DNA of 18,588 bases from a virus. Taxonomy: Duplodnaviria; Heunggongvirae; Uroviricota; Caudoviricetes. The stretch lies in IMG/VR virus record IMGVR_UViG_2526164690_000035, positions 1 through 18,588 of that record, one strand, 5' to 3'. Of this stretch, positions 2,361 through 6,579 are shown piece after piece. The position numbers and the translations under genes are program-made. The number at the start of each line of letters is the position of its first letter. Positions within the stretch are counted from its first letter, which is position 1. The notes below the pieces were generated by a model, which had not been told where the DNA came from, searched no databases, and worked only from the letters and a program-made list of their open reading frames with translations.

Positions 2361-2949
2361 GTATGCAACGGTCGATTTTGACCAGGTTAATGAAAAGGGG
2401 CTGAAATCCCTTATCGCGGCGATCAATAAAACCGGGGTTACGGTAATTGAGGTTGACTCCAGCAACCGCGCAACAACGAAAGATGGCGTTAAAGTTAAAA
2501 CCGCAAAGCTGGTTCTTAACGACGGACAAATTCTTGCCATACAGGTAAACGATACTGGCGATATATCGTCTGTGAAACTGAATGGAAAAGCTATTCCTAA
2601 CGCTCAGTCGCCGGATATCAAGACGCTTGGTACCGTCATGGGACAGGCGGCTCGCAAAAACTCCGCAAAATTCCAGAAATCACTGATCGCCAAAGCGAAG
2701 CGTGTTGCCAATCCGGTAGACAAGAAACCGGCAGTTAAATCCAACTTTCAGCGCCTGCAAGAGGCAAAACAGCGGAATGCTCAGGTGGTTGCCGCTTATA
2801 AATCAGCTCAGAACTCGGTGTCTTTCAATCAACAGCAGATCACTGATTTGCGGGGGAAGCTGGATAAGGAGACAGGCCGACTCAATAACGAAAAGGCCCG
2901 AAATGGCGAACTCAAACGCCGTCTTAAGCAACTGAAAGCAGGAAATTAA
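2338..2949 (+). CDS. hdf: Hdf-like protein (homolog of a DarA fragment)
   Basis: 203-aa ORF. Shares internal segments with the downstream 639-aa protein: KNSAKFQ (DNA aaaaactccgcaaaattccag at about 2653-2676 versus aaaaactcggcaaaattccag at about 3552-3575, 20/21 nt identical) and LNDGQILAIQV versus LSDGQTISILF. Likely true start is the ATG at 2347 (MTKNK), 8 nt after an AGGA. Confidence 0.6.
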   Translation: MCQMTKNKYATVDFDQVNEKGLKSLIAAINKTGVTVIEVDSSNRATTKDGVKVKTAKLVLNDGQILAIQVNDTGDISSVKLNGKAIPNAQSPDIKTLGTVMGQAARKNSAKFQKSLIAKAKRVANPVDKKPAVKSNFQRLQEAKQRNAQVVAAYKSAQNSVSFNQQQITDLRGKLDKETGRLNNEKARNGELKRRLKQLKAGN

Positions 2950-2950
2950 C

Positions 2951-4870
2951 ATGGAACAGTTCAATATCAATAAAGGGGTGACGATCAAGCCTGGGCTTGA
3001 CGTGCTTCCCCCGCCAGTGACTGATGATGAATATCGCGCATTAATGGCCGGTGAGGACCGCTATCTGATGACGGAATCCAACACCCTGGAGGAAATCGAG
3101 GCTACGTTCTTCTATGACACGCCGATCCACTGGTGTGCTACGGATTTACTGGAGGCGATTAGTTCTACTCGTTTGCAGTTACACCGGACCATGCAGGCAT
3201 TTGTCCGGGCATTGAACCAGAAGCTGAATGGTACCGGAATCTCTGCGGGGAGTGATAAAACGGGCGATGTGGCCCAGAGCGGCGCGCGCGCGATCGGCGG
3301 CGCTGAAATTGGTCGGGCACGTAACGTTAACGGGCTGCCGGTCCTGCCAGCCATTATTCCGCTCAGTGATGGTCAGACTATCAGCATTCTGTTTCATAGC
3401 CCGACAGCGGAAAACCGGATCACCAATAGCGATACGCTGGTTGCTTTCCAGTTCTTACTGAATAAAAAAGACGTTACTCACACCGTTGCTCCGATGAGTG
3501 GACGTGATATGACGCTGGCGCAGGTCACCATGAAACTTGCCAACCTTGCAGAGAAAAACTCGGCAAAATTCCAGCGTGCGCAGAAGAAGAAAAAAGCCCT
3601 TGTTGATGAAATAACCCAACTACAGGCTGACAGTGACCAGAAAGAGGATGCCATGAGCGACCTCGCGGATCAGGTGGCAGCGGTAGAAGGGCAGAAGGCA
3701 GATCTGGAGCAGAAAATTAACGCTGTTGCATCGGAAGCGGATTCTCTTTATGAAGAGAATGAGCGTTTGCAGACGGAGATTGATCAGCTCAATCGCACTG
3801 GTGGGCGCGATACCATTGCTCCTGCGGGGATGACTGGTGGGTACTCTCGCGCGCTGACGGATCGCCTTGCCAGTATCAAAAATCGTATGCATATGAACGG
3901 GGAAGTGACGCTCAGTAATGGTGCATCAATGAAGCAATTCATTGAGGACGGCGAAGGGTATATCCAGTTAACCGATTCGGATGGCAGCGTGTACATGATC
4001 AAGGCTAAATCCATACAGGGTGTGGACATGGCAGATGCGATCGGCAAGCTGTTTAAAGCCTATAAAGCGGGTAATGTATCGGAATATCTGGTCCAACCAG
4101 AAGAACATAAACCGGAAAACGTCGAACCTGAATCAGCGGAGGATACCGGTAGCTCTTTGCCTGAACCAGAAGTCTCTGTAGGTGCATATCGATATGCCCT
4201 GCAAATGCGTCCGGCGGCCCCTGGCGCAATACCTGAAGGTAACAAAGCAATTCTGCCGCGCCCTGATGAAGGTGACCCGTATTATGAATATGCACGCTAC
4301 GGCATTGTTACTTACGATACCCCGCTTTCTGATCAGCAAATGAGTGAGTACGACCTGAAGTTATTGCCTCGCGAGGATTCTTTCGACTTCCTGGCGAAGA
4401 CACTTACTAATGGTCCGTTTGGCAAATATGCACAAAAAGCTCTGGAGCTGGCCACCAGCTCACCAGACGAGTTCCGCGTAATGCTGAAAACTCAGTTTCA
4501 AAAAACTTTCCCCAATATTGCGTTTCCTGGGGGCGCTGGCATCGAGAAAATGGTGCAGAGCATGATCAATGCATTGCAGGCCGAAGTCGGTGAGATTACT
4601 CAACCAGAACCGGTCCCGGCACAGCCTGATGAAACGGTTAGCGAAGCAGATGCAGAGGCTAATAAAGCCATTGAATATCTCAATAGCGTGATGGATATGC
4701 AAAGCACTGACATGGCGGAGATCCGTAACGCCCGGGGCAATGTCCGGGAAGCGATTGCTGCCCTTCAGGCTGCCGGACGTTTTGAGGAAAACGAAGAGCT
4801 GGTTAACGGTGCTGCTCGCCACCTGGCTGATCTGCTGGTAGCAATCCAGAAAGCGGGGGTAGCGGCATGA
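2951..4870 (+). CDS. darA: DarA-like capsid-packaged antirestriction protein
   Basis: 639-aa ORF with central coiled-coil region (LQADSDQKEDAMSDLADQVAAVEGQKADLEQKINAVASEADSLYEENERLQTEIDQL) and acidic proline-rich linkers. Size, operon position after lydA-lydB-hdf and the Hdf paralogy match my recollection of P1 DarA; no alignment done. Confidence 0.65.
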   Translation: MEQFNINKGVTIKPGLDVLPPPVTDDEYRALMAGEDRYLMTESNTLEEIEATFFYDTPIHWCATDLLEAISSTRLQLHRTMQAFVRALNQKLNGTGISAGSDKTGDVAQSGARAIGGAEIGRARNVNGLPVLPAIIPLSDGQTISILFHSPTAENRITNSDTLVAFQFLLNKKDVTHTVAPMSGRDMTLAQVTMKLANLAEKNSAKFQRAQKKKKALVDEITQLQADSDQKEDAMSDLADQVAAVEGQKADLEQKINAVASEADSLYEENERLQTEIDQLNRTGGRDTIAPAGMTGGYSRALTDRLASIKNRMHMNGEVTLSNGASMKQFIEDGEGYIQLTDSDGSVYMIKAKSIQGVDMADAIGKLFKAYKAGNVSEYLVQPEEHKPENVEPESAEDTGSSLPEPEVSVGAYRYALQMRPAAPGAIPEGNKAILPRPDEGDPYYEYARYGIVTYDTPLSDQQMSEYDLKLLPREDSFDFLAKTLTNGPFGKYAQKALELATSSPDEFRVMLKTQFQKTFPNIAFPGGAGIEKMVQSMINALQAEVGEITQPEPVPAQPDETVSEADAEANKAIEYLNSVMDMQSTDMAEIRNARGNVREAIAALQAAGRFEENEELVNGAARHLADLLVAIQKAGVAA

Positions 4871-5232
4871 CACTATCAGCTATTGAGTTAATGGACCTCA
4901 GCGATAAGTTGGATGCTCTGATGTCCAAAGCGGCTACCGCGAGTGGCATGGAGTTGCTGGATATCAGCGATGAAATTGACCAGATCATGCAACAGATGGG
5001 GTACGGCGCGTCCGGCGGCAGTAGTGGCGAGGAAAAACAACCTTCGGTACATGATGGTGTGCCAAAACTGGTTGCTGATTTCCTGGCTGATAAATTCGTC
5101 GATCAGAGCACTGATGCATTTATCGGTACGTTACAGGACTTGAGTCAATATGTTGGCACATACATCGACCTGGACCAGGTTAAACAGCACACGGCGGCAT
5201 GGATAGCCGCCAACATTAAAGAGGCAGCGTGA
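4867..5232 (+). CDS. ddrA: DdrA-like small acidic protein
   Basis: 121-aa ORF overlapping the darA stop by 4 nt (ATGA). Acidic, Asp/Glu-rich. Named by position and size only. Its stop codon abuts the right end of the TnpB element. Confidence 0.5.
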   Translation: MTLSAIELMDLSDKLDALMSKAATASGMELLDISDEIDQIMQQMGYGASGGSSGEEKQPSVHDGVPKLVADFLADKFVDQSTDAFIGTLQDLSQYVGTYIDLDQVKQHTAAWIAANIKEAA

Positions 5233-5400
5233 CATCCTCCACGCCCCGAAGGGCGTGGATTCCTGCTACGTTCAGGCTGTCGCCTGAATCATTTCGGTGG
5301 GTTCCTGCTTCAACGGGCGGCCTGACTGCACCATCCCTCCACAGGCAAGTACGGCGTGCCCCGCCGCTAAAATGTTACGAGCGCCGTTTACATCGGCGTT
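5233..5400 (-). ncRNA. Putative TnpB omega RNA (right-end element RNA) scaffold
   Basis: Inference from established TnpB biology: the guide RNA derives from the 3' end of tnpB plus the right end, and a right-end hairpin is present at 5239-5258. Extent is not determinable from sequence alone. Confidence 0.25.
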
Positions 5401-6480
5401 CGCTGTATATCCACATACCTGGCATCTGAATTTACTTTGTGACAGGCGATTTTCTTTCGCTGTATGACCACAGCACGCGCAACGCTGGCTTGTGTACGCT
5501 GGCGGAACAGCAAGCACCTGACCGCCACGCCAGAGCTGCTTGTACTCAAGCTGGCGGCGCATTTCATACCAGCCCTGATCCAGTATCGAACGGTTTAAAC
5601 CTGATTTTGCCCGGACATTGCGACCCGGATGACTTATCGTTCCCGCCGCTGACTTTGACATGTATTTAACCTTCAAATCCTCAATGACAATCATTGCGTG
5701 GTTTTTGCTGACGGTCGTTGTGACTTTGTGAAGGTAGTCCCTGCGGATATTTGCGATACGGGAATGCAGTCGCTGTATTTTGCGTTTCTGCTTCTGCCAG
5801 TTGTTGCTGAATTTGACCTTGCGGCTTAACTGTCGCTGAAGTCTCGCCAGCTTCTTCTGGTTTTTCTGAAAACTATTTACAGGTTCAAAGACTGTGCCAT
5901 CTGACAGCGTGGCGAGTTTAGCCACGCCAGCATCCAGTCCGACCATTGATGCTGAAGGGTGAACAGGAGTGGATACCTCTCTTTCTGTCTGAATACTGAT
6001 GTACCACTTACCGCAGGACTGGCTGACAGTAACATTTTTCACAATACCCGTGACCTGACGGCTATTCCGGTAGCGCATCCAGCCAAGTTTCGGCAGAAAA
6101 ATACGGCTGTTTTCCTGATCGAGCTTAACACCCTGCGGGTAGCGGAATGCATCATTCTGTCCCCGCTTTTTGAATCGGGGAAAAGCTGCCCGATTCTGGA
6201 AGAAGTTTTTGTAAGCCCGCTCAAGGTCTTTCAGTGACTGTTGCAATGGCTGTGAGGGAGAATCTTTAAGCCATTCGGTTTCAGTGTCTTTTTTCCACTC
6301 AACCAACCAGGAAGCCATTTTCGTGTAAGGGATGTATTTTTTACCGGCCTCATGATTCTCATTCTGAAGCGCCAGAGCACGGTTGAAAACGAAACGACAA
6401 GCTCCGGCAAAGCGCCTCATTTGACGCTCCTGTTGACCATCTGGTTTTAACCGGAATTTGAATGACACCTGTTGTTTCAT
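5272..6480 (-). CDS. tnpB: TnpB (OrfB) RNA-guided nuclease of the IS200/IS605 family
   Basis: 402-aa ORF with a RuvC-like core and C-terminal zinc-finger pattern (SQRCACCGH ... [20 protein letters not shown]) characteristic of TnpB/OrfB proteins. Confidence 0.9.
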
Positions 6481-6579
6481 GTCACTATTTTAAGCAAAAA
6501 TAGCCGGGAGGAAAACTGTGCCTTATATCCCCACTATGAGGAGCGTAGGGGGCGGCACATTGGATAAGGCGTAACAGGG

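Follow-up and report, generated by a model that had tools for sequence, protein, structure and literature searches.

The DNA studied here raises the question of how a gene on the opposite strand came to stand between the anti-restriction genes ddrA and ddrB of a P1-like phage-plasmid, whether the segment that carries it can still move, and what its product would do at this site. In the window, as the whole stretch of 18,588 nt of viral DNA that was analysed is called below, the genes are arranged in the order lydA, lydB, hdf, darA (2951-4870), ddrA, a 402-aa minus-strand ORF, ddrB and hxr, and the genes upstream of the insert match the Pfam families DarA_N and DarA_C. Between positions 4000 and 8000 the window is 99.3% identical to phage RCS47 and 97.4% identical to Salmonella phage SJ46 over 4 kb, and the match to P1 and P7, at about 98%, is split into two pieces with 1.3 kb skipped.

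An insertion between ddrA and ddrB

In the P1 reference genome (NC_005856) only 12 nt separate the ddrA stop codon from the ATG of ddrB and no tnpB lies between them, so the tnpB segment of the window is an insertion and not native to the locus. Alignment with this empty site, in which the P1 junction GCAGC|ATAAGG corresponds to GCAGC[5229...6563]ATAAGG in the window, places the whole insert at 5229-6563 on the minus strand, with a length of 1335 bp. No target base was duplicated and none was lost, as ...CCTTAT|GCTGCC... on the minus strand became ...CCTTAT[1335 bp]GCTGCC.... The target tetranucleotide TTAT (plus-strand ATAA, 6564-6567) flanks the left end of the element on the minus strand, overlaps the displaced native stop codon of ddrA and is the predicted target-adjacent motif (TAM) of TnpB. 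The element thus stands 3' of a specific tetranucleotide without target duplication, which is the insertion rule of the IS200/IS605 family.

The two neighbouring proteins are hardly affected. From the ORF list and the junction alignment, ddrA (4867-5232, plus strand, 121 aa) now ends within the element, which supplies the stop codon TGA (5230-5232) and base 5229, the third base of the last Ala codon, and the native stop TAA is displaced to 6565-6567. DdrA of the window is 97% identical to that of P1, with an unchanged C-terminus and still 121 aa long. On the other side, ddrB (6580-9567, plus strand, 995 aa) is intact, carries the Pfam ddrB-ParB domain and encodes a protein 99% identical to P1 DdrB over its full length; the 16 native nucleotides 5' of it (ATAAGGCGTAACAGGG) are kept beside the insert.

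The first-pass annotation, made from the letters alone, had proposed a TnpB-only IS200/IS605 element between ddrA and a ddrB-like gene. This is borne out by the absence of the gene from the P1 reference at this position and by the profile search, which assigned the 402-aa ORF to the TnpB family (OrfB_IS605); the three ORFs, with the 402-aa one at 5272-6480 on the minus strand, also lie where they had been placed. The proposed extent of 5233-6579 has to be corrected to the junctions given above, since the ddrA stop belongs to the element.

Besides P1 and P7, 390 records among 5426 complete E. coli genomes have the empty ddrA|ddrB junction, compared with 64 that have the filled ddrA/right-end junction, and a native P1 gene is thereby ruled out. 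RCS47 (FO818745) and SJ46 (KU760857) carry the same insertion with the same junctions, annotated as insQ or "transposase IS605" between ddrA and ddrB, and in RefSeq plasmids the gene is annotated as "RNA-guided endonuclease InsQ/TnpB family protein". Venturini et al. (2019; PMC6906374) described P1-like plasmids that carry IS609 or IS609-like insertions, with TTAT and TCAA as the sites of cleavage, including the "IS609-like sequence" of pSvP1. The insertion itself is therefore already known, an annotated and ordinary kind of a common E. coli IS. In the public RCS47 and SJ46 records and in Venturini et al. (2019) we found no description of altered ends or of a relation between guide and target, and a literature search on insQ with P1-like elements returned nothing specific. 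The damaged ends, the stop codon supplied by the element and the match of the guide to the empty site are new details, and they are refinements of a known thing.

Relationship to IS609

By sequence comparison, the element is a tnpA-less derivative of the IS609 type (insQ of K-12) within the IS200/IS605 family. In an alignment with IS609 of E. coli K-12 both termini and tnpB are shared, and a segment of about 440 bp containing the divergently oriented tnpA (yncK) is missing. No tnpA ORF was found within the element, which hence encodes no Y1 (HUH) transposase and is non-autonomous. Its family assignment is based on the target rule, the architecture of the right end and TnpB, the left end being non-canonical.

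IS609-type DNA is present in 5015 of the 5426 complete E. coli genomes, and in E. coli O55:H7 the annotation includes an intact tnpA of IS609 (protein WP_000604943.1). Copies that lack tnpA and have the same leader as the window element, but canonical ends, occur at several unrelated sites: next to hok on an F-like plasmid, between lydD and pro on a P1-like plasmid of E. albertii, on another phage-plasmid, on a Salmonella IncFII plasmid and on a Citrobacter chromosome (L033). Judging from this distribution, the short tnpA-less form as such looks mobile in trans, and the copy between ddrA and ddrB is the exception.

Ends of the element

Read on the minus strand, the element follows TTAT and consists of the left end (6563-6516), a leader (6515-6481), tnpB, a hairpin (5258-5239) and AGGATGTCAC (5238-5229), after which the flank continues with GCTGCCTCTTTAATGT.... 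In relatives the canonical left end reads CC(G/A)GTGCGCCGT-AAAA-CCCCGTCC-TTCA-GGGCGGGG-ATATAAGG. Of this, the window retains an outer part and the GGGGATATAAGGC motif, both homologous to the left end of IS609; the outer stem is TGTGCC/GGCACA as compared with GCGCC/GGCGC in K-12, a compensated change. The inner block GTAAAA-CCCCGTCC-TTCA-GGGCGGGG is replaced by GCCCCCTACGCTCCTCATAGTG, so that the AAAA guide tetranucleotide and the canonical TnpA-binding hairpin are both absent. The replacement block can form only a weak, imperfect and unrelated hairpin, with a fold energy of z = -0.2 against shuffles.

The tetranucleotide TTAT adjoins the left end at no fewer than eight other independent IS609 sites that were read directly in E. 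coli, E. albertii and Salmonella, namely the K-12, yedK, tetR/ytfB, yfeD, pM7424, E. albertii, p1_000200 and Salmonella IncFII sites, and Venturini et al. (2019; PMC6906374) name TTAT as the site at which IS609 is cleaved on the left. TTAT, or less often TTAC, also forms the left flank in the majority of the relatives that were sampled in other species, and the target covaries with the tetranucleotide 5' of the left-end hairpin: TTAT is paired with AAAA in at least 20 elements and TTAC with AAAG in five (L010, L025, L028, L029 and L066), with one exception (L011). Between the left end and the start of tnpB, the leader (6481-6515, minus strand) is specific to the tnpA-less derivatives and common to copies at other sites; it holds a -10-like TAAAAT at 6492-6487, a putative promoter.

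At the right end, the subterminal hairpin IP_R (5239-5258, minus strand) reads CCACGCCC TTCG GGGCGTGG, or CCACGCCC CGAA GGGCGTGG on the plus strand. When the region is folded as DNA it reaches z = -3.7 against shuffles, and compensatory changes in the hairpin occur across 43 relatives. The 10 nt from the foot of the hairpin to the right cleavage site (5229-5238, minus strand) are present as well, and their terminal tetranucleotide is TCAC. The right ends of the 43 relatives, which come from other sites and species, read ...GAGGATGTCAA with TCAA, bar one decayed copy reading TTAA, and among the copies compared TCAC was found only in the window and SJ46. At the right site the lesion amounts to one substitution, A to C in the final position of the cleavage tetranucleotide.

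The meaning of these changes for mobility can be judged from IS608, in which the left cleavage site lies upstream of the left hairpin, the right one, TCAA, is located 10 nt 3' of IP_R, and guides of 4 nt, placed 5' of the hairpin foot, read the cleavage sites; the transpososome is lost when either the guide sequence on the left or the cleavage site on the right is mutated (PMC3201880). On this precedent, with the AAAA guide and the hairpin lost on the left and TCAC in place of TCAA on the right, the copy in the window is predicted to be no longer excisable by the TnpA of IS609, although the altered left-end hairpin might still bind some TnpA. The first-pass annotation had located the right-end hairpin correctly and had seen no matching hairpin on the left, which is accurate as an observation, for the left-end hairpin resembles neither the one on the right nor the canonical one. 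Its suggestion of a truncated left end is to be rejected, as both termini are present and TTAT adjoins the left end as at other IS609 sites. The immobility that it had raised as a possibility along with truncation is plausible for a different reason, the replacement of the left-end hairpin and AAAA together with the change at the right cleavage site.

TnpB and its predicted RNA

The gene tnpB (insQ; 5272-6480, minus strand) is intact and encodes a 402-aa protein of the RNA-guided nuclease type, as shown by matches to Pfam, InsQ and ISDra2 TnpB. The Pfam matches are OrfB_IS605 (1.5e-34), Cas12f1-like_TNB (2.4e-24) and HTH_OrfB_IS605 (1.6e-16), and the protein aligns over its full length to the ISDra2 TnpB structures 8bf8 and 8exa (E = 9e-52). 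In this alignment the RuvC motifs GLD183AG, VIE267DL and NAD363VN are kept, as are two CxxC pairs (CACC and CQVC), so that the D-E-D triad and the zinc-finger cysteines are found together in a TnpB fold; D183, E267 and D363 correspond to D191, E278 and D361 of ISDra2 TnpB. A nuclease-dead, domesticated TnpB (TldR-like) was considered and ruled out, as the catalytic residues and a full-length C-terminus are present. For nuclease activity or a TAM of the IS609/InsQ TnpB, no published test was found in the literature. Between the window and SJ46, tnpB has a dS of 0.098 and a dN of 0.019, giving a dN/dS of 0.19, a low value to which mosaic gene conversion by functional copies at other places may have contributed, given the patches common to other copies.

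An omega-RNA scaffold is predicted at 5229-5390 on the minus strand, overlapping the 3' end of tnpB and the right end of the element. In Rfam the last 160 nt or so of the element, read on the minus strand, matched HgcC, sot0042 and RAGATH-18 weakly, and no family of this database reached its gathering score in the region; HgcC and sot0042 are RNAs of tnpB 3' ends. The region folds with z = -2.8 against shuffles, and in the consensus structure of a 44-sequence alignment 96% of the cells are paired, compared with 38-51% when the partners are slid by 1-3 columns, with changes on both sides in 16 pairs as opposed to 3-9 in the slid controls. It is in its conserved structure, and in that only, that this 3' region agrees with an omega RNA.

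The predicted guide of this RNA comprises the 16 nt of the flank directly 3' of the right end (5213-5228, minus strand; GCUGCCUCUUUAAUGU). It had been anticipated in the first-pass annotation that a guide would come from the 3' end of ddrA, and the flank agrees with this, the guide being antisense to the last ddrA codons. The window has a single copy of the guide sequence, with ...GTCAC in front of it and no TTAT beside it; at the empty ddrA|ddrB site of P1 the same 16 nt directly follow TTAT. If active, the nuclease would thus leave the allele that encodes it uncut and find a match in the empty allele of most P1-like replicons. The exact 41-nt stretch of TAM and target was found in about 330-350 E. 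coli records. According to two reports, IS605-family TnpB cleaves vacant sites with transposon-encoded guides (PMC10690162) and TnpB derives omega RNA by processing of its own mRNA (PMC10278001).

Taken as a whole, the following explanation is in our judgement probably correct: a tnpA-less IS609 derivative inserted once and became fixed, its TnpB and omega RNA target the empty site, and ddrB is served by read-through. The insertion would have occurred 3' of the TTAT that overlaps the ddrA stop, in the ancestor of a sublineage of P1-like phage-plasmids that comprises RCS47, SJ46 and many plasmids of E. coli and Salmonella, and the loss of the left-end AAAA and hairpin, together with TCAC for TCAA, would mean that IS609 TnpA no longer cuts the copy out. 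The tnpB transcript would be processed to an omega RNA with a 16-nt guide from the flank (5228-5213), and the TnpB-RNA complex would cut DNA in which TTAT is followed by GCTGCCTCTTTAATGT, as it is where ddrA|ddrB is uninterrupted, in P1 and in most P1-like replicons, while the insertion allele, with no TTAT beside the target, would be spared. Such targeting of the empty junction would match the known role of IS605-family TnpB in retention and homing, and read-through from the late dar promoter would account for ddrB expression.

The same features could also belong to a decaying passenger without function, which is neutral, persists only through its inability to excise and leaves TnpB and its RNA idle. 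Both elements of TnpA recognition are damaged, DdrA and DdrB are unchanged by the insertion, and no more than about 14% of the P1-like ddrA-ddrB loci carry it. The flanks add to this: among filled alleles their similarity shows no gradient towards the junction, and the distance between two filled alleles is no smaller than that of a filled allele from P1. In these sequences there is consequently no trace of recent homing with co-conversion, a result that as evidence is neither for nor against homing. Against a passenger of this kind stand a tnpB that has remained full length in two diverged copies, with intact catalytic residues and the dN/dS given above, and a 3' RNA region that keeps its pairing. 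We regard it as possible but doubtful.

Expression of ddrB

The insert separates two genes that lie next to each other in P1, and its roughly 1.3 kb contain no long plus-strand ORF between ddrA and ddrB, which could allow Rho-dependent termination. Polarity on the downstream gene, unless a promoter reads out of the element, had been expected in the first-pass annotation. It is conceivable that the antisense insert is polar on ddrB and hxr, lowers the amount of DdrB in the virion and changes the anti-restriction spectrum. One weak terminator-like site at 5846-5861 on the plus strand would fit, but the three terminator-like sites found in the insert are at chance level, 2.1 being expected in shuffles. 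A consensus promoter scan of the insert gave no more sites than shuffles did. Against polarity also stand the retained native 16 nt upstream of ddrB and the intact gene itself: between the window and SJ46, which both carry the insertion, ddrB has a dS of 0.048, a dN of 0.004 and a dN/dS of 0.08, a sign of strong purifying selection. From this comparison of two insertion-bearing lineages, it appears that ddrB has kept its function behind the insert, and a regulatory effect of this kind is in our opinion unlikely.

Origin and persistence of the copy

The copy in SJ46 agrees with that in the window in its junctions, in TCAC and, apart from 3 substitutions, in the odd left end, and the two have 12 private substitutions that were found in no other copy. 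Over their length, 51 of 1335 positions (3.8%) differ, partly in patches common to other IS609 copies. The shared lesions and private substitutions indicate that one insertion in an ancestor was followed by divergence and gene conversion, and rule out independent insertions in the lineages of the window and SJ46. The odd left-end variant of 99 nt is present in full in 75 PLSDB plasmids, those among the matches listed having the size of P1-like plasmids (94-147 kb), and within PLSDB it was seen only in P1-like plasmids.

That the window holds an ordinary, still-mobile non-autonomous IS609 derivative, present at the site only transiently and moved in trans by a chromosomal IS609 TnpA, would be in line with the sister copies of the same leader at unrelated sites, the abundance of IS609 in E. 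coli and the intact tnpA of O55:H7, but it is quite improbable, since the mobile-looking copies all combine the canonical left end (AAAA plus CCCCGTCC..GGGCGGGG) with TCAA, neither of which the window copy has, its left-end variant was found only at the P1 site, and two copies at this site that have diverged as far as stated above share both lesions, which speaks for a long stay.

Significance

In itself the element matters little, as it is a widespread E. coli IS annotated at the same position in public phage and plasmid records. It is of interest as a natural example of a TnpB-omega-RNA unit that has seemingly outlived its own mobility, with TnpA recognition damaged and the nuclease gene and RNA intact. 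In addition, its predicted target, perfect and flanked by the TAM, is present in most related phage-plasmids, which makes RNA-guided competition or homing testable with RCS47, SJ46 and P1.

More speculatively, the fixed and non-transposable unit may act in the plasmid-prophage state as a single-guide homing or exclusion nuclease against P1-like genomes with an empty site, an idea to which we assign a low probability. If it were true, incoming or co-resident P1-like genomes with an uninterrupted ddrA|ddrB junction, a state found in about 85% of P1-like replicons of E. coli, would be cut and then either converted to the insertion allele by recombination or eliminated, in a manner resembling the homing endonucleases of T-even phages except that it would be RNA-guided. 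P1 is a standard vector for transduction and delivery, and tools built on it could be affected by an active nuclease directed at the wild-type ddrA-ddrB junction in P1-like plasmids that reside in clinical E. coli.

Comparison with known systems

The closest known system is IS609 of E. coli K-12, which consists of insQ (b1432) and the tnpA pseudogene yncK (NC_000913.3, 1503161-1504908). The two elements have in common the left end TTAT|CC...GGGGATATAAGGC, the right end ...GGAGGATGTCA, the right-end hairpin, the 3' RNA region and a TnpB that is 93% identical to InsQ. They differ in that the K-12 element measures 1748 bp and includes the divergent tnpA, whereas the shorter copy in the window has another left-end core, another leader and an end in TCAC rather than TCAA.

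With IS608 of Helicobacter pylori, the paradigm of the family, the element has in common that it stands 3' of a tetranucleotide that was not duplicated, that its hairpins are subterminal and that 10 nt separate the foot of the right hairpin from the cleavage site, which here reads TCAC, and in the relatives of IS609 the guide tetranucleotide covaries with the target as the IS608 scheme has it. Unlike IS608, IS609 uses TTAT and not TTAC as its target and has its tnpA divergent from tnpB, and the copy in the window moreover lacks tnpA, the left guide and the canonical left hairpin.

The nuclease component resembles that of ISDra2 from Deinococcus radiodurans (PDB 8bf8, 8exa and 8h1j) in its RuvC and zinc-finger motifs. 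In ISDra2 the omega RNA overlaps the 3' end of tnpB and the guide is derived from the flank, an arrangement that the window element would share by analogy, with a predicted TAM of TTAT for its TnpB as opposed to TTGAT for that of ISDra2.

Insertions and neighbouring genes in P1-like elements

A further tnpA-less insertion of the IS609 type, with canonical ends, was found in the P1-like plasmid p2RM15115 of E. albertii (locus L090, positions 2464-3803), where it is placed between the antiholin gene lydD and the head-processing gene pro. The counterpart of this site in the window (~13167-13457) is empty. The insertion is independent of the copy between ddrA and ddrB and is the second in P1-like elements, which have therefore been hit by IS609 at least twice; its site appears to be the one reported for pJIE250-3 (PMC6906374).

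Two other genes lie away from the insertion. A full-length porin gene of the OmpC/OmpF type (10602-11717, plus strand; Pfam Porin_1, E = 3e-148), annotated as ompC in related plasmids, is located downstream of hxr, in the place taken by isaB and IS1 in P1. An ORF of 190 amino acids on the minus strand (264-836), which resembles hexapeptide-repeat transferases through weak Hexapep matches, precedes the lysis genes on their upstream side, at the position held in P1 by cin and the C-segment; a serine O-acetyltransferase is listed for related plasmids.

Sequence variation among the IS609 copies

The window copy and the copy at the same P1 site in SJ46 (L009) have in common a private N-terminus of tnpB (codons 3-10, window 6451-6473), the corresponding residues being MKRLQAFKFQLR in all other copies examined. 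Since this N-terminus adjoins the altered left end in both P1-site copies, a single replacement patch is suggested, which would span the core of the left end and the first ~30 nt of tnpB. Substitutions are also clustered at 6400-6423 and 5506-5515, where the window or the SJ46 copy matches either the P1-like copy of E. albertii or the copies from yfeD and Citrobacter, and this agreement with other IS609 copies indicates mosaic gene conversion among them. In SJ46, the loop of the right-end hairpin (L009 ~3247-3254, window 5247-5254) is inverted compared with the window, reading CGAA vs. TTCG on the same strand, and is accompanied by one change in the stem, which looks like a flip of the loop rather than four point mutations.

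Guide and target sequences

Directly after the predicted 16-nt guide, within the ddrA antisense, begins a terminator-like hairpin (5192-5212, minus strand), TGGCGGCTATCCATGCCGCCG followed by TGTGCTGTTT, which is native P1 sequence and comes from a terminator scan whose total was at chance level. This hairpin could set the 3' end of the predicted RNA.

When left ends from Enterobacterales were compared, the target tetranucleotide covaried with the four nucleotides on the 5' side of the left hairpin, with TTAC/AAAG at L010, L025, L028, L029 and L066, relatives sampled in other species, as opposed to TTAT/AAAA in the TTAT elements, and with L011 as the sole exception. Judged by this covariation, the guide-sequence rule of IS608, in which cleavage sites are read by 4-nt sequences 5' of the hairpin foot (PMC3201880), extends to the IS609 group.
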